The position numbers and the translations under genes were made by a program. 61,798 bases of DNA from a virus (lineage: Duplodnaviria; Caudoviricetes), in the IMG/VR virus record IMGVR_UViG_3300049982_000075, positions 1 through 61,798 of that record; one strand, 5' to 3'. Below the pieces are notes generated by a model. That model did not search any database and was not told the origin of the DNA. It worked only from the letters and a program-made list of their open reading frames with translations. Below are positions 13,773 through 61,629 of the stretch, piece after piece. The number at the start of each line of letters is the position of its first letter. Position 1 is the first letter of the stretch.

Positions 13773-14159
13773 TTAGCGCGACTTCAGCTCCTCGAGCCGG
13801 CTATACAGGGTGTCGAGCTCGCCCATCAGCTTCTGGATCTGCCCCTGCATCTCGGAGATCGTCCGATCCTTCTCGGTGATCGTCTCGATCAGACTGGTGT
13901 TGATCGAGTGGACCCGCTGATTCTCCACCTGAAGAGCCTCGATGTTCCGGAGCATGACTGCGTTCACCGTTGCGGCGTCGTTGACCGCAGACGACGTCGC
14001 GGTGACGGACTGACCAACTTCGGCGAGCTCCTGGTCCTTCCGTCGGCCGAGCCAGGAGATGATCTCCCGCAGCACCCAGCCGATCGCAACGAAGATACCG
14101 CTGGCCCCTCCGACGGTCGGAAAGTCCAGCGTGATGAATGGAACTAGTAGGGTCATCAT
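13773..14159 (-). CDS. Membrane-anchored coiled-coil protein (lysis cassette)
   Basis: N-terminal TM plus heptad repeats. Confidence 0.65.
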   Translation of the reverse strand: MMTLLVPFITLDFPTVGGASGIFVAIGWVLREIISWLGRRKDQELAEVGQSVTATSSAVNDAATVNAVMLRNIEALQVENQRVHSINTSLIETITEKDRTISEMQGQIQKLMGELDTLYSRLEELKSR

Positions 14160-56517: not shown

Positions 56518-57805
56518 CAGCAACAAGCGAGGTAGACTCGGTGGCATGACCAAGCCTCGCAAGAACCTCGATGACGCCGTACGCCGCCTGATCGACGGCA
56601 CGCCGTCGCCGCTCGTGCGAGCTCCTGCCCCGAAGGACTTCCAGCCCGGCGTGAAGTACGAAGGCGGCCGGATCTCCGAGATCACCACCGCCGGTGTCGG
56701 CCGGGACCTGCGCGACGACGAAGACTTCTCCGAGCTACTGGCTGAGATGGGCATCGTCGTACCGATCGGATACCGAATCATCCTCGACGAGGCTAGGTTC
56801 GACCCGGCCGCCTGGCATCGCGACGGCCAGGGCGAGGACGCCGTCACGCGCGAGGTGTGGCGCTACCGGTTCAAGGTCGTCCCCGCCGCGCTCACGCCCG
56901 GCCAGGACGAGGATCTGGAGAAGCTCTTCGCAGCCGCGCGCAAGACCCAGCGCGCGCGGCCCCGGCCGACCGAGTTCGACAAGGCCACCATGGTCGTCGT
57001 GCTCGGCGACATTCAGGCTGGCAAGGTCGACCGTCGCGGCGGCACCGTCGAGCTTCTGGAGCGCTTCGAGCACGCCAAGAGCGACGTCATGAAGCGGGCC
57101 CGCAAGATGCGCCCGCAGCAGATCGTCATCGTGGACGCCGGCGATGCCATGGAGAACTTCGAGAGTTCTCCGGGCGCCGATCGGACCAACGACCTGCAGC
57201 TCACCGAGCAGATGCGACTGTGGCGCCGAGTGTTCTGGGACTGGGTGTCCAACCTGGCGTTCCTGGCGCCCGAGATCGACGTCCTGTCGGTGCCGTCCAA
57301 CCACTGCAGCGTTCGACGCGGCAAGCAGAACATGTCCACACCCGGGGACGACTACGGGCTGGAAGTTCTGTCGCAGCTGGCCGACATCGCAGCGGAGAAC
57401 TCGCAGTTCAGCCACATCAACTTCTGGTCGCCTGAGGAGCACGAGGAGGCGCTCGCCCTGACCCTGGTCGGCGGCAAGACCCTCGGACTTGTCCACGGAC
57501 ACCAGAAGAGCCGGCCCGAACTGGCCGCGCAGTACATGGCTGGCCAGGCGCTCGGCCGCACTCCGATCGGTGACGCCGATATCGTCGTCATGGGACATTG
57601 GCACAACCTGCGTGTGCAGACCTTCGGCGACGACCGCTGGCTGTTCATCTGTCCGACGATGGACTCCGGCAGCTCCTGGTACGCCAACACCACCGGCGAG
57701 GAGTCGGCTGCCGGCGTGTTGACCTTCATGGTCGACGAGCGCGGCTGGCGTGACCTGCATATCGCCTGGGCGCGGCCGGGCGTGGACTACGAGGTGATCG
57801 GGTGA
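56504..57805 (+). CDS. Calcineurin-like metallophosphoesterase (Mre11-like nuclease family)
   Basis: GDIQ, GDAME, SNH, HGH, GHWH motifs. Confidence 0.85.
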   Translation: MTVADSNKRGRLGGMTKPRKNLDDAVRRLIDGTPSPLVRAPAPKDFQPGVKYEGGRISEITTAGVGRDLRDDEDFSELLAEMGIVVPIGYRIILDEARFDPAAWHRDGQGEDAVTREVWRYRFKVVPAALTPGQDEDLEKLFAAARKTQRARPRPTEFDKATMVVVLGDIQAGKVDRRGGTVELLERFEHAKSDVMKRARKMRPQQIVIVDAGDAMENFESSPGADRTNDLQLTEQMRLWRRVFWDWVSNLAFLAPEIDVLSVPSNHCSVRRGKQNMSTPGDDYGLEVLSQLADIAAENSQFSHINFWSPEEHEEALALTLVGGKTLGLVHGHQKSRPELAAQYMAGQALGRTPIGDADIVVMGHWHNLRVQTFGDDRWLFICPTMDSGSSWYANTTGEESAAGVLTFMVDERGWRDLHIAWARPGVDYEVIG

Positions 57806-58002
57806 CGACCGTGGCAACCGACGAGAAGCAGCCTCAGCATCCCACCGTGGCCGAGCTCGAGGAGGCCATCACTCACCTGGCCGAGACGTGCCGGCGCTAC
57901 GGCCGGTTCGCCCAGAAGTACGGCGAGTGGCACGAGGAGATCAACCACCTCCTGACGGATCGGGAAACTGCCCTCTTGACGAGGTCCGGCGGAGTCCTGT
58001 AG
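57802..58002 (+). CDS. Hypothetical protein
   Basis: GTGA coupling. Confidence 0.6.
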   Translation: MTTVATDEKQPQHPTVAELEEAITHLAETCRRYGRFAQKYGEWHEEINHLLTDRETALLTRSGGVL

Positions 58003-58005
58003 AGT
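57976..58005 (+). promoter_or_regulatory. SigA-like promoter driving the RNA island
   Basis: TTGACG-N18-TAGAGT. Confidence 0.7.
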
Positions 58006-58314
58006 TTCTCTCAGGTCGAGAGAGCAAGTACCGAGCCTCCAGAGGGATCCCGGGCAAGGTGCGGCCGGCCAGCCAGCGCTCTCGATTTAGCTGAGGACTA
58101 GCGGAAGTCTCGCAAGGCCCGCCAAGCGGGCGGACCGAGACAGTTTTGTATCCCTTTCCACCTAACGGCCGGGTTCGAGCCGGGTTTGGGCTATGCCGAG
58201 CAGGGGCGGATCCTGCCACTCAGCGAATTGAACCTGCAGGAAGCTCTTCCCCGGATGCAAGGGTTGAGTGGGGCGGTATGGGAGTAGCAGACAATTTCCA
58301 TACGCGGTCTCTAA

Positions 58315-58387
58315 CGCGGGGTAGTTCAGTTGGCAGAACGCCGGGCTCATAATCCGGTAGTCATGGGTTCGAGTCCCATCCCCGCCA
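58315..58387 (+). tRNA. tRNA-fMet (CAT)
   Basis: full cloverleaf; C1xC72 mismatch; CCGGG-CTCATAA-TCCGG anticodon arm; TTCGAGT T-loop. Confidence 0.92.
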
Positions 58388-58398
58388 CGAAGCAACAA

Positions 58399-58469
58399 GC
58401 CGGACTTGTGTAATGGCAGCACACCAGGTTCTCAACCTGGAAGCAGGGGATCGATACCCCTGTCCGGTA
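58399..58469 (+). tRNA. tRNA-Glu (CTC), atypical T-loop
   Basis: GCCGGAC/GTCCGGT acceptor; CCAGG-TTCTCAA-CCTGG; T-loop ATCGATA. Confidence 0.8.
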
Positions 58470-58541
58470 CGCCTCCCGACCGGCATCTTGCGGCGCCTAT
58501 AGGGAAATCCCGTGAGTGACGGGGAGATAGTCACTCTGGTA

Positions 58542-58636
58542 GTCCGTTTAGCTCAAAGGTAAGAGCGCCCTCCCAAACGAGGGGTTAGTGCCAACCAGGC
58601 TGGTTGGACGTCCGGGGTCGAGACCCGGAACGGACG
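58542..58636 (+). ncRNA. tRNA-like RNA with long variable arm and 6-nt anticodon loop (Leu-CAA-like)
   Basis: GTCCGTT/AACGGAC acceptor, normal D arm, CCCTC-CCAAAC-GAGGG, CCAACCA/TGGTTGG V arm, CCGGG-GTCGAGA-CCCGG. Confidence 0.7.
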
Positions 58637-58731
58637 CGAGAGAGTCGGTACGATGGCCGGACCGACCGCCGAGGGCTAGCAGAGTGCGGGGATGCCGCGA
58701 CCGAGGCTTGACAGTGGCAAGGTAGGCCTGA

Positions 58732-58799
58732 GCGGAGCGGTCAGGGACCGTCGCTGCCTCCAAAGCAGTGATAGCGGAGATCAATACTTCGGCTCCGTG
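58732..58799 (+). tRNA. Compact tRNA-Trp (CCA) with reduced D arm
   Basis: GCGGAGC/GCTCCGT acceptor, G73, TCGCTGC-CTCCAAA-GCAGTGA, CGGAG-ATCAATA-CTTCG. Confidence 0.7.
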
Positions 58800-58810
58800 C
58801 GAGTCAATTC

Positions 58811-58890
58811 GGGGTTGTAATGGTTTCGATCGTCGGTAAGGCCCCACGTGGGAGACCGGCGGGACCTGGGTTCGATTCCCAGCAACTCCA
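58811..58890 (+). ncRNA. Mini-tmRNA: tRNA-like domain only, no mRNA-like domain
   Basis: GGGGTTG/CAACTCC-A acceptor with G3:U70; stemless D loop TAATGGTTTCGA; short P2; GGAC-CTGGG-TTCGATT-CCCAG T arm. Confidence 0.8.
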
Positions 58891-58903
58891 CGCAGTACTG
58901 CAC

Positions 58904-58978
58904 GGTGACGTAGCAGTCCGGGATAGCGGAAGTGGTGAACCGTCGCAAGGGACGGCGCTGAGCTCCGGGTGCGTCACC
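58904..58978 (+). ncRNA. Orphan long hairpin RNA
   Basis: GGTGACGTA/TGCGTCACC, CCGGG/TCCGG, TAGCG/CGCTG, CCGTC-GCAAGG-GACGG. Confidence 0.5.
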
Positions 58979-58981
58979 TAT

Positions 58982-59068
58982 TCCCTACTAGCTCAATCGG
59001 AAGAGCGGCCGGCTGTTAACCGGCGTCAGCGCGCAAGCGTGGACCAGGATCGAAACCTGGGTGGGGAG
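58982..59068 (+). tRNA. tRNA-Asn (GTT) with long variable arm
   Basis: TCCCTAC/GTGGGGA-G acceptor; GCCGG-CTGTTAA-CCGGC; V arm GCGC-GCAA-GCGT; T-loop ATCGAAA. Confidence 0.85.
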
Positions 59069-59071
59069 CGA

Positions 59072-59160
59072 GGGTGAGGTAGTGGCGTAGTTCAACTGGC
59101 CAGAATCTGTCCGCCAGAGGGCAGGATGCGGGTTCGAATCCCGTCGCCGGTGCCTCACCC
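59072..59160 (+). ncRNA. tRNA mimic with extended acceptor helix and aberrant anticodon loop
   Basis: GGGTGAGGTA/TGCCTCACCC outer stem; D arm GTTC...GAAT; CTGTCC-GCCAGA-GGGCAG; GCGGG-TTCGAAT-CCCGT. Confidence 0.65.
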
Positions 59161-59164
59161 GCTA

Positions 59165-59239
59165 GGGCCTCTAGCTCAGTGGACATAGAGCAGCCGACTC
59201 TTAATCGGCGGGTCGTGGGTTCGAATCCCACGGGGCCTA
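59165..59239 (+). tRNA. tRNA-Lys (CTT)
   Basis: canonical cloverleaf; GCCGA-CTCTTAA-TCGGC; TTCGAAT. Confidence 0.95.
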
Positions 59240-59462
59240 CAAGGCAGCATCGAACCACATCGTCGCGAAGATGACGTGGTCGGCTTGGCCTCGGTGGCGA
59301 CCGAATACGCCGGAGTGGTGACCGACAATCACTCGCCTTGGCGGCGCGTATCCGTCCCCCGTAGCGCAGGGTGATAGGGCAGCGGCGACGGACCGCAAAC
59401 CGTTCGGCCTCCTCGGCCGTGAAGAGGGTGCCTCGCGACAGGCATAGTTGGTCGCAGATGTT

Positions 59463-59510
59463 GGCCCCACCAGGGCTGGTCCACTTGCGGACCACTGGTG
59501 GGGCCTTCGT
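59463..59510 (+). terminator. Long hairpin closing the RNA island
   Basis: GGCCCCACCAG...TGGTCC/GGACCA...CTGGTGGGGCC then TTCGT. Confidence 0.6.
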
Positions 59511-59595
59511 CGTATCACATGCTGGACAGGGTCTTGCACTATTGTGCGGATATCGGCAGGATGGTACCCATCACCAACGGAGGGAGATCGACCAC

Positions 59596-60843
59596 ATGGA
59601 CATCTACGATCTGCTCGATGCCACTGAGCTGTACAAGCTTCGTGAGTTGGGCTACATCTCGAAGCGGGAACACCCGACGGAGCCGCTGTCGATCCTGAAC
59701 TACACGGACAAGGCGCAGCTGGCCGACGCCGACTTCTGGGCGGCGCACCCGGCGCTGTCGCACTGCCGAGGCCTGATCTACAACTCCTACACCAACGAGA
59801 TCGTGGCCCGGCCTTTCCGGAAGTTCTGGAACCACAACCAGCCGGCGGCCGACAAGATCGACCTAAAGGAGCGCGTTTACGCGACGGACAAGGTCGACGG
59901 ATCGCTGGGGATCATGTACCGCGAACCGAGCGGCGACCTGGCCATCGCCACACGGGGCAGCTTCACCTCGGACCAGGCCCTGCACGCCACTCATCTGCTG
60001 CGCACCAAGTACCAGATGAGTCTGGCAGGCCCCCGGGACCCTCGTGAGCGCTACCACGCGGCCGACGACGAGACCTTCCTGTTCGAGATCGTCTACCCCG
60101 AGAACCGGATCGTGCTCGACTACCACGGCGCTGACGAGCTAATCCTGCTCGGGTCCGTCGAGATCGACAGCGGCTACGTCTCGCTCCCGGCGGCGGCTAG
60201 CATCCACCTGGACTGGACCGGTTGGACCGCTCAGACCTTCGGCTATAACACCCTGGGCGACGCCCTGGCGGCCGCGCCACGGCCGAACGCCGAGGGGTTC
60301 GTCATCGCGACGCGCGGCGGCGAGAAGATGGTCAAGATCAAGCAGGAGGACTACGTTCGGCTGCACAAGATCATCTTCGGCCTGACCGAGAAGTCGATCT
60401 GGCGCGCTCTGGTGGCCGGCGATTCGCTGGACAGCCTGCTCGAGCCGCTGCCGGATGAATTCCACGCCTGGGTCCGCGAGGTCTACGGCCGACTCAAGGG
60501 TGCGGCTTCGACGTGGGGCGAAGGCGTCCGCGAGGAGTACCGGCGGATCATCGACGCTGGCGACTGGGAGCCGGTGTCCGACTATCAAGACCATGCTGCC
60601 CGGGCTGAGAACAAGAAGCGGTTTGCCCAGATCGTCAAGGGCGACAGGGACTCGTGGGCGTACTTCCAGCTCTACATCGGCCGTGGTGCGGACATCGAGC
60701 AGACGTACCTGGAGAAGCACCTGGAGCCGGTCGGCGCGACCGGTCCGGCCTCGACCAAGACCGAGGAGGTCTGCCTGGAGTGGAAGGCGGGCAGTCGATG
60801 CCCTGGCTGCATGGGGTGCCCATTCGATCGTGAGGAGGACTGA
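59596..60843 (+). CDS. rnlA: RNA ligase, T4 Rnl1 family
   Basis: LNYT, CRGLI, RPFRKFWN, KVDGSLG (motif I), ATRGSF, FEI, EGFVI, KIK; AGGGAG RBS; TTGCAC-N17-CAGGAT promoter. Confidence 0.93.
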   Translation: MDIYDLLDATELYKLRELGYISKREHPTEPLSILNYTDKAQLADADFWAAHPALSHCRGLIYNSYTNEIVARPFRKFWNHNQPAADKIDLKERVYATDKVDGSLGIMYREPSGDLAIATRGSFTSDQALHATHLLRTKYQMSLAGPRDPRERYHAADDETFLFEIVYPENRIVLDYHGADELILLGSVEIDSGYVSLPAAASIHLDWTGWTAQTFGYNTLGDALAAAPRPNAEGFVIATRGGEKMVKIKQEDYVRLHKIIFGLTEKSIWRALVAGDSLDSLLEPLPDEFHAWVREVYGRLKGAASTWGEGVREEYRRIIDAGDWEPVSDYQDHAARAENKKRFAQIVKGDRDSWAYFQLYIGRGADIEQTYLEKHLEPVGATGPASTKTEEVCLEWKAGSRCPGCMGCPFDREED

Positions 60844-60844
60844 G

Positions 60845-60982
60845 ATGGCGAACCTGACGCTGCTCCGTCTGCGGCTGGCCAAGGCCGTCGCGAACGGTGA
60901 CGAGACGACGATCAAGCGTCTCCAGAACCAGATCAAGGCCGAAGAGAAGAAGCGTGGCAAGAACCCGAGAAGGGGGCTCTGA
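60845..60982 (+). CDS. Small basic hypothetical protein
   Basis: GAGGAGG RBS. Confidence 0.6.
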   Translation: MANLTLLRLRLAKAVANGDETTIKRLQNQIKAEEKKRGKNPRRGL

Positions 60983-60983
60983 A

Positions 60984-61247
60984 GTGGGATCAGGATCCAA
61001 GTGGAACGCGGACATCAAGATCGACAAGGCGCAGCACCGGCGTGATATCCTCGGCTTCCGGACCACGTCCCGGCCGAACCATGAGGTGAAGAAGCCTGTC
61101 GAGGATGCTCGTCGCGCCGATCGCCGGGATCGACGTGCAGCCAAGGCCGCCGAGAGCAGCTCGCTGTGCGCATCAATCCTGATCGCCAGCGCGATCTCGG
61201 CGGCTGGCCTGGCGTCAAACGTCGCCCGAGTGAAGGGCTGGGTCTGA
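60984..61247 (+). CDS. Hypothetical protein with C-terminal hydrophobic helix
   Basis: GTG start after AGGGGG. Confidence 0.55.
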   Translation: MGSGSKWNADIKIDKAQHRRDILGFRTTSRPNHEVKKPVEDARRADRRDRRAAKAAESSSLCASILIASAISAAGLASNVARVKGWV

Positions 61248-61450
61248 TGGCCAAGCAGGAGAAGCCGAAGCGCGGCCGAGGTAACCCGACCAAGCCACTC
61301 ATCGGCCCGCGCCTGCCGGACGCTGGCCGAGGTGATCTGCCGAACCCGAACGCTCCAAAGTGCGGTACGTCGTATCGCGACCGCTACGGACTCGAGAAGA
61401 AGTGCGGCAAGCGAGGCCGGCACCTGAAGCACGGGCCTGGCAACGGGTGA
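61247..61450 (+). CDS. Small basic C/H protein
   Basis: C...C...H..H pattern; TGATG coupling. Confidence 0.6.
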   Translation: MAKQEKPKRGRGNPTKPLIGPRLPDAGRGDLPNPNAPKCGTSYRDRYGLEKKCGKRGRHLKHGPGNG

Positions 61451-61629
61451 AGTGGCTGAGCGTTCCGGTGTCCGATCTGCCGGTAGGGTGGTCGACCCTG
61501 GCCACCTACCGGCCGGACGAGCTGGAGTGTGAAAAGGGCCACAAGATGGGGTCCGAGGCGGACTGCATTCTTCCCGACGACTGGGATTACCACCTGTGTA
61601 AACGATGCGTGGAGGATCTCCAGCAATGA
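61447..61629 (+). CDS. Small Cys-containing hypothetical protein
   Basis: CEKGH...CKRC; coupled. Confidence 0.55.
   Translation: MKWLSVPVSDLPVGWSTLATYRPDELECEKGHKMGSEADCILPDDWDYHLCKRCVEDLQQ

Follow-up and report, generated by a model that had tools for sequence, protein, structure and literature searches.

The textbook case of tRNA repair by a phage is that of T4, in which the RNA ligase Rnl1 (gp63) and the polynucleotide kinase-phosphatase Pnkp (PseT) stand against the host nuclease PrrC, and phage tRNAs themselves are now seen as a countermeasure to host defences that cut tRNA. The T4 tRNA, Rnl1 and Pnkp genes are dispersed, and the T4 tRNA cluster presumably encodes two extra small stable RNAs as well. 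This paper concerns a comparable locus in the IMG/VR virus record IMGVR_UViG_3300049982_000075 (Duplodnaviria, Caudoviricetes), all 61,798 nucleotides (nt) of which were analysed and are called the window; the parts of the locus described below are on its plus strand. Positions 58006-59595, which have no coding signal, hold eight tRNA-shaped genes, followed by genes for Rnl1 and Pnkp. The two enzymes belong to the same families as those of T4, with their catalytic motifs aligned, and both phages encode tRNAs; the window differs in that its tRNA operon directly abuts the ligase gene, that its lysine tRNA has the anticodon CUU and not UUU, and that its array includes a reduced transfer-messenger RNA (tmRNA), here called a mini-tmRNA, and tRNAs with long extra arms. 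Of a system like that of T4 and PrrC, the window displays the phage side; its host would be a high-GC bacterium, for which no PrrC-like nuclease is known.

In tRNA-rich actinophages (cluster C1 mycobacteriophages, and large Streptomyces phages with Rnl1 and polynucleotide kinase, PNK), too, one genome combines an array of tRNAs with a tmRNA-type RNA and an RNA ligase; cluster M mycobacteriophages are tRNA-rich too, with tmRNA and RtcB. By comparison the array of the window is small, having 8 genes and not 20-40, and half of it is structurally non-canonical; where cluster C1 phages have a tmRNA and RtcB, the window has Rnl1 as its ligase and a tmRNA without a tag. That the tRNAs of such phages resist or replace the targets of VapC, MazF or PrrC, phage tRNAs and repair being an answer to host tRNases, is a published hypothesis, as worded in the cited part of PMC10264068. 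A preliminary reading of this DNA, made from its letters alone (the sequence-only reading), had named tRNAs such as fMet, Trp, Leu and Lys as targets of actinobacterial VapC and MazF toxins; the cited part of PMC5175351 bears this out for Trp-CCA and Leu-CAG, which mycobacterial VapCs cut together with Gln-CTG.

A tmRNA consisting of the tRNA-like domain (TLD) has a precedent, since Hudson, Lau & Williams (2014) list 'Mycobacterium phage DS6A (TLD only)' (PMC4131195). The relevant passages of that paper and of a 2025 database paper (PMC11915505) report, citing Mao 2009, strong inhibition of tmRNA by a similar molecule, which may act by titrating SmpB; DS6A is the phage example named in them, whereas 63 IMG/VR contigs were found here to carry such an element. 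In both the DS6A element and that of the window, the acceptor carries G3.U70, there is an analogue of the D loop, the P2 stub is short, a T arm is present and a tag frame is lacking. The DS6A copy, however, is solitary between protein genes, while that of the window lies inside a tRNA operon near Rnl1. In DS6A, ARAGORN predicts one doubtful tRNA (13981-14071) inside the annotated tapemeasure gene, and the RNA ligase is RtcB, 21 kb from the mini-tmRNA.

A tRNA operon in front of RNA repair genes

The locus is read here as a phage tRNA operon fused in front of a conserved Rnl1-Pnkp tRNA-repair cassette, with a probability of approximately 0.6. The bias in G+C content at third codon positions (GC3) that characterizes the real genes of this genome is absent in every frame over approximately 58000-59560, compared with GC3 of 0.82-0.95 in the flanking genes, and the claim of the sequence-only reading that about 1.5 kb contain no credible protein gene is thereby confirmed. 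Its single promoter at 57976-58005 also stands as a candidate: the sigma-70-like TTGACG-18-TAGAGT is the sole site in 57500-61000 (shuffles of this 3.5-kb region gave 0.5 +/- 0.7) and, with both strands of the whole genome counted, one of five occurrences of TTGACN-N16-19-TANNNT. The putative promoter, predicted from this pattern, overlaps the stop codon of a 66-residue open reading frame (ORF, 57802-58002).

The gene directly after the island was correctly recognised in the sequence-only reading as that of an Rnl1-family RNA ligase (59596-60843, 415 residues, with its own Shine-Dalgarno sequence). The protein matches PF09511 (E 4e-15, 56.7 bits against a cut-off of 28.3) and phrog_562 (E 8e-63), and it aligns with T4 Rnl1 (2C5U, E 2.4e-14) from query residue 47 to residue 287, with DKVDGS over TKEDGS of T4 and the KxDG lysines aligned. 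The remaining 128 residues of the 415, at the C-terminus, are unaligned; the C-terminal domain of Rnl1 confers tRNA specificity. The kinase that had merely been presumed is present as a T4-type Pnkp of 318 residues (136-1092), approximately 1 kb downstream of Rnl1 across the arbitrary ends of the record. The record is a complete phage genome of 61.8 kb with direct terminal repeats of 127 nt, and the two ends of the window are therefore contiguous. Pnkp matches AAA_33 (E 2e-20), HAD_PNKP (E 4e-53) and phrog_505 (E 2e-95) and aligns over its full length with T4 Pnkp (1LTQ, E 4.9e-37), with GLPGSGKT and DIDGT placed over the T4 motifs, namely the kinase P-loop and the DxDxT motif of the phosphatase.

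Rnl1 and Pnkp are approximately 40-46% identical to the versions of Streptomyces and Arthrobacter phages. Pnkp is encoded just downstream of Rnl1 in 21 of 30 related loci, several of the others being cut contigs; judged by gene order, Rnl1-Pnkp is a widespread conserved cassette. In one relative, L002, both proteins are approximately 52% identical to those of the window, and the order of elements is that of the window: a tRNA of which the contig includes the 3′ end, then tRNA-Lys(CUU), a hairpin, Rnl1 and Pnkp. The two tRNA-Lys(CUU) genes are 80% identical, and the hairpin of L002 (241-283 of that record, 80 nt before Rnl1) has G-C at two pairs that are A-T in the window. The L002 record ends just upstream of tRNA-Lys, inside the 3′ end of the other tRNA, and most of the island is lost. 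The distance from tRNA-Lys to the hairpin is approximately 95 nt in L002 and 220 nt in the window.

The corresponding hairpin of the window (59463-59505) is nested and GC-rich, an inverted repeat with 11-nt arms that are 100% complementary, and lies 90 nt before the start codon of Rnl1. With a folding energy of -34.1 kcal/mol, a z-score of -4.85 and 0 of 200 shuffles as good, it substantiates the long hairpin in which the island had been said to end, and it may serve as a terminator or in processing.

The tRNA-shaped elements

Scans with ARAGORN and Rfam, which the sequence-only reading had named as a check, were run. ARAGORN predicted seven tRNA genes in the island, and Rfam at gathering thresholds identified tRNAs at 58315, 58399, 59081 and 59165 and a tmRNA at 58811-58893, with an additional tRNA at 58982 (45.3 bits) under laxer filters only. 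The cut-off of the Rfam tRNA model RF00005 (29 bits) is reached by the Met (65 bits), Lys (63.3), Glu (56.2) and Asn-GUU (45.3) elements and by an RNA with an 8-nt anticodon loop (29.2); the elements at 58542-58636 and 58727-58799 are predicted by ARAGORN alone, neither being listed by RF00005 at E <= 10 over 2.1 kb. Four extra poor candidates obtained with ARAGORN at 80% thresholds were rejected, having mismatched stems and, in two cases, lying on the opposite strand. The sequence-only reading had counted five tRNAs, two tRNA mimics and a mini-tmRNA; eight elements are indeed present, three of them canonical, but its count includes the two ARAGORN-only predictions.

The canonical genes are tRNA-Met(CAU) (58315-58387), tRNA-Glu(CUC) (58399-58469) and tRNA-Lys(CUU) (59165-59239), all three predicted by both programs. 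The first folds as a cloverleaf and resembles an initiator, with an unpaired C at both position 1 and position 72 and with G-C, G-C and G.U at the base of the anticodon stem, which we take to be initiator features. A canonical tRNA has an anticodon loop of 7 nt in which position 33 is U and position 37 a purine. This combination is present in the Met, Glu, Trp-like, Asn and Lys elements, and is broken in 58542-58636, which has no U33, and in 59081-59152, which has an 8-nt loop. The Asn(GUU) and Trp-like RNAs are thus unusual in shape but, as judged by their loops, decodable.

The tRNA-Asn(GUU) gene (58982-59068) has a canonical anticodon loop, G as discriminator and an extra arm of approximately 19 nt with a GCAA cap; none of 200 shuffles folds as well. 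A pattern for long-arm Asn-GUU tRNAs returned 18 loci in IMG/VR, mostly intron-type insertions or chance extensions. Two large phage contigs of approximately 140 kb have tRNA-Asn(GUU) genes with a short extra arm and a GUAA cap (L106:2244-2309 and L120:2814-2879), which may be regarded as a loose parallel to the long-arm tRNA of the window. In other contigs (L105, L108, L110, L115 and L117, and also L107, L109, L111 and L119), tRNA-Asn(GUU) has insertions of approximately 11-21 nt directly after the anticodon loop; the insertions of this group are intron-like, and L111 is labelled a giant-virus metagenome-assembled genome (MAG).

The tRNA-Trp(CCA)-like RNA (58727-58799) has a canonical CUCCAAA anticodon loop, an AUCAAUA T loop and two competing folds. 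The cloverleaf of ARAGORN has two acceptor mismatches, whereas in the minimum free energy (MFE) fold, which begins at 58732, the acceptor is perfect, the D hairpin has four base pairs and a 3-nt loop, and the anticodon stem has eight base pairs. Among sequencing runs that contain this stretch of DNA, no RNA run is listed. Contigs near-identical to fragments of the island occur in four DNA runs of one soil study, and their one informative variant, T58769C, seen in contigs of two other runs of that study, converts a G.U pair of this anticodon stem to G-C, which is weakly consistent with the predicted stem. One contig of 371 nt is only approximately 85% identical to 58733-58797 and may reflect a diverged copy carried by a related phage.

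The remaining two elements depart further from a tRNA. The long-arm RNA of 95 nt (58542-58636) was called 'Val AAC' by ARAGORN; it has perfect acceptor, D and T arms and an extra arm of approximately 27 nt, but its anticodon loop, CCAAACG, is without U33, as is the register preferred by ARAGORN (C-A-AAC-G-A). Its MFE structure is the cloverleaf plus the extra arm, and 0 of 200 shuffles fold as well. The clamp-stem RNA (59072-59160, core 59081-59152, ARAGORN anticodon 'ccag') has the 8-nt anticodon loop CGCCAGAG or, alternatively, a 6-nt loop with a sixth pair. Pairing of its leader with its trailer lengthens the acceptor helix, the inverted-repeat arms being 16 nt long and 81% complementary, and the whole folds with -47.7 kcal/mol (0 of 200 shuffles as good). 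Like YrlA (RF02553), it has a tRNA-like module with a long closing stem, formed here by its own flanks; an assignment to YrlA was rejected, the match scoring 22.4 bits against a cut-off of 69 with other boundaries (59104-59217), and no Ro/TROVE protein was matched in the genome at E <= 1.

The odd elements and the canonical ones share their immediate 3′ context. None of the eight encodes CCA, where the sequence-only reading had said seven; its observation on the bases after the discriminator holds, with C in all eight (P approximately 4e-5 from island composition) and CG in six (P approximately 1.7e-5). The gaps after successive discriminators are 11, 72, 90, 11, 91, 12 and 12 nt, so spacings of 11-12 nt define the groups Met-Glu, Trp-like-mini-tmRNA and Asn-clamp-stem RNA-Lys. 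Because of this common C/CG trailer and spacing, the odd elements are laid out like canonical ones. Their folding z-scores against shuffles are -4.07 (long-arm RNA), -3.81 (Asn), -4.78 (clamp-stem RNA) and -2.70 (Trp-like RNA), whereas the Met, Glu and Lys genes have values of -2.16, -3.25 and -1.91; the high predicted stability of the odd elements argues against decayed pseudogenes.

The sequence between the elements is different. Compared with dinucleotide shuffles, the three long spacers fold at chance level (z -0.54, +0.24 and -1.49), as does the 309-nt leader (58006-58314, MFE z -0.54), which has no gene or significant structure. The 355-nt tail is the sole inter-element stretch that beats its shuffles (z -2.93), because the nested hairpin lies in it. 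Since the leader and spacers fold no better than shuffles, the approximately ten further stem-loops of the sequence-only reading are unsupported.

Three smaller observations concern these stretches. A 15-nt direct repeat (CGAGAGAG..GTAC) occurs at 58017-58031, just after the predicted transcription start, and at 58637-58651, where it follows the long-arm RNA's discriminator without a gap, the copies being 80% identical; CGAG follows three of the odd RNAs. Either chance or a role in processing may explain the repeat and CGAG. The 100 nt that follow tRNA-Lys (59241-59340), at the start of the tail, fold as a closed, cloverleaf-like shape of three hairpins.

The tag-less mini-tmRNA

The eighth element (58811-58890) is a tmRNA reduced to its tRNA-like domain. 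Its match to RF00023 (58811-58893) scores 56 bits against a cut-off of 47 and extends to both ends of the model (1-374). The features that define the tRNA-like domain are all found, namely G3.U70, discriminator A, the T arm and the 5′ GGNUUCGA element, together with a P2 stub of seven base pairs that has a small inner hairpin. An mRNA-like domain is absent, 304 model positions being represented by 13 nt, and ARAGORN detected no tmRNA or tag peptide in the element; with the mRNA-like domain missing and no tag frame, it is not a functional tagging tmRNA.

A pattern in which the halves of the tRNA-like domain are only 20-50 nt apart matched 63 contigs in IMG/VR (L012-L074; 46 distinct sequences, GC 0.29-0.65). 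The same pattern matched only five contigs in 185,579 species genomes (L123-L127), all of them MAGs or unnamed isolates. The mini-tmRNAs are 66-90 nt long. Columns made invariant by the pattern carry no evidence for the family. Overall, among 47 distinct sequences including that of the window, 97% of cells are paired compared with 45-55% with slid partners, the covariation score is 0.675 compared with approximately 0.09 (0 of 500 shuffles reach 0.675), and in the P2 stub, which the pattern does not force, all seven pairs have changed on both sides. The inner loop has an A-rich segment and then a CC motif, kept in at least 70% of sequences.

A covariance model built from this family (R1), with which the window's own element scores 82.7 bits by construction, gives 58.6 bits for the DS6A element (L075, 28478-28557). 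With a tRNA-like domain, a short covarying P2 stub and a length within approximately 75-90 nt, in a phage, the element of the window is of the DS6A type. A literature search for the term 'mini-tmRNA' returned none, and one for 'tmRNA-like' with 'bacteriophage' nothing relevant.

Genes for tRNA-Trp(CCA) lie within a few hundred bases of some mini-tmRNAs (L027:3266-3336, L046:4470-4540(-), L013:6006-6077(-) and L071:5155-5229(-)), and those of L027 and L046 have unusual D arms and the anticodon at position 30-31. By ARAGORN, a Trp gene is near the mini-tmRNA in five of 42 loci. A link between mini-tmRNAs and odd tRNA-Trp genes was considered and found unsupported, with Trp-type loops within 600 nt in 11 of 52 loci and a chance expectation, by crude count, of 0.27 per locus.

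Genome and other features of the locus

The record originates from a soil metagenome. The genome is actinophage-like, given its genes for a WhiB-like protein, a Prim-Pol/D5 primase-helicase and endonuclease VII. Its GC content is 60-67% (64% is also given), and the WhiB-like gene and the 64% GC point to Actinobacteria as the likely host. No close cultured relative of the phage was found, the primase being at most 27% identical to Gordonia phage proteins; DNA searches with the island in the phage collection revealed similarity to single tRNAs only, mainly those for Met, Lys and Glu, and a search for relatives with the upstream exonuclease gene had no match. The product of that gene, a metallophosphoesterase of 419 residues, was considered as a further part of the RNA repair apparatus and rejected, as it belongs to a DNA exonuclease family (phrog_284).

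Two small ORFs lie between Rnl1 and Pnkp: one of 50 residues (60830-60982, GC3 0.84), and a Cys-rich one of 89 residues (61360-61629, GC3 0.70) with a weaker coding signal. Neither had a family match in Pfam-type and PHROG profile searches. The approximately 380 nt between them (60983-61359) have a weak coding signal, with a best GC3 of 0.70-0.78, and no match by Rfam or ARAGORN.

Proposed function and alternative explanations

The phage's own codon use is strongly biased, with GAG accounting for 88% of Glu codons, AAG for 98% of Lys codons and AAC for 91% of Asn codons. Because the anticodons of the array read these major codons, plus UGG and AUG, the array is not a compensation for rare codons; the match between anticodons and major codons would fit replacement of host tRNAs. 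In the proposed course of events, the sigma-70-like promoter would direct a transcript of approximately 1.5 kb, which would end or be processed at the strong conserved hairpin and would be cut into the eight tRNA-shaped RNAs. Each RNA would end in the discriminator plus C, to be completed by the CCA-adding enzyme of the host. The initiator-like Met, Glu-CUC and Lys-CUU tRNAs, and probably the Asn-GUU and Trp-CCA-like RNAs, would read the commonest codons of the phage and could supplement, or stand in for, tRNAs of the host that run short or are cleaved during infection. The mini-tmRNA would most likely bind SmpB of the host and so block or divert trans-translation; alternatively, it may enter stalled ribosomes without tagging. 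Neither SmpB nor a CCA-adding enzyme was found in the phage genome, and the phage would therefore rely on those of its host. What the sequences themselves display is the anatomy of the locus, its family memberships, the common 3′ context, the folding stability and the conservation of cassette and hairpin; transcription, processing, charging, the effect on SmpB and any link to host nucleases are steps that we infer.

The sequence-only reading had proposed an integrated anti-defence module with replacement tRNAs, decoy RNAs and a repair kit. Part of this holds, in that a tRNA operon abuts a genuine Rnl1-Pnkp pair, and an anti-defence reading is plausible; the coupling, however, is not general, and several points stand against a tRNA operon fused to a conserved repair cassette. 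Genes for tRNAs are near Rnl1 in one of four viral (IMG/VR) loci and in none of the 19 metagenome loci examined, and in the Arthrobacter phages Bauer and Seahorse, which encode both enzymes, the displayed stretches contain no annotated tRNA. Genes for Rnl1, Pnkp or RtcB are absent from the 567 kb flanking the other 63 mini-tmRNA loci, and tRNA genes are missing from the flanks of 26 of the 42 such loci that were examined. Two elements of the array are unrecognised by the Rfam tRNA model, and the 95-nt RNA and the clamp-stem RNA appear, by the usual rules, undecodable. Pattern scans of IMG/VR returned 0 matches for a homologue of 58542-58636 with its CCAAACG loop, and 0 for a homologue of the clamp-stem or 8-nt-loop RNA. 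A terminator scan of 57500-61000 returned 0 sites, the hairpin at the end of the island being without a U-tract (no T run). Actinobacterial terminators may lack U-tracts.

The array could instead be an ordinary supply array, in which three to five decodable tRNAs raise the capacity to translate the abundant codons of the phage, the aberrant elements are relics or artefacts and the adjacency to Rnl1 is accidental. The lack of tRNAs beside Rnl1 in three of four viral and all 19 metagenome relatives, the fit of the anticodons to the major codons, the two ARAGORN-only elements, the two odd elements left without homologues by the pattern scans and the unstructured spacers all suit this explanation. 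It is nevertheless rather unlikely. The stems of the aberrant elements are perfect and their z-scores the best in the array, the C/CG trailer and the spacing of 11-12 nt are common to them and the canonical genes, and the mini-tmRNA family is under clear structural selection. A comparison with related phages had also been named as a check in the sequence-only reading; the pattern scans returned no homologues of the two undecodable RNAs, and the order of tRNA-Lys, hairpin, Rnl1 and Pnkp is kept in L002 at 52% protein identity, which counts against an accidental adjacency.

The shapes of the odd RNAs make a decoy role attractive, and a decoy model would have the long-arm, clamp-stem and perhaps Trp-like RNAs serve as sponges bound or cut by VapC- or MazF-type toxins, with Rnl1 and Pnkp recycling them. 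The acceptor and T arms are tRNA-like, the D arms of the long-arm and clamp-stem RNAs are canonical, the loops of these RNAs are unfit for decoding, their stability is unusually high and the repair pair adjoins. The 8-nt loop, moreover, holds CCA and CAG, the anticodons of mycobacterial VapC targets according to the cited part of PMC5175351, although this likeness could be coincidence. With shape as its only evidence and no conserved homologues found in the pattern scans, the decoy model is improbable. Another use of the same features would be recoding, in which the 8-nt-loop tRNA reads the four-base codon CUGG or the long-arm tRNAs are charged by a different synthetase. An 8-nt loop on otherwise tRNA-like arms, with a score at the Rfam cut-off, would permit the former, and the long-arm Asn-GUU tRNA is compatible in identity (discriminator G, canonical loop) with the latter. 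CUG, however, constitutes 57% of Leu codons (605 of the 13,194 codons counted), so that reading of CUGG would be widely harmful, and the acceptor end of the 8-nt-loop RNA is locked in the helix of 16-nt arms, which should hinder end processing; recoding is accordingly very improbable. In the most far-reaching version, the island would be a dedicated locus for protecting translation, with three layers of counter-defence in one transcription unit, namely replacement tRNAs, look-alikes that inhibit or sponge up tRNA-cutting toxins and SmpB, and recycling by Rnl1-Pnkp. The long-arm, clamp-stem and Trp-like RNAs and the tag-less tmRNA domain would then be reinforced look-alikes and not failed tRNAs, but in this full form the reading is doubtful.

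Significance of the locus

Every component of the locus is of a known kind; the novelty lies in how these components are combined, in the tRNA shapes that are not canonical and in how broad the family of tag-less tmRNAs is. One compact unit brings together tRNAs for supply, a tmRNA domain without a tag, a repair pair and unusually stable, undecodable look-alikes, which makes the locus a test bed for whether phages use RNA decoys besides replacement tRNAs. By simple scan, the tag-less tmRNA occurs often in viral metagenomes and hardly ever in bacterial genomes, which suggests that many phages interfere with ribosome rescue or hijack it, a strategy that has received little study.

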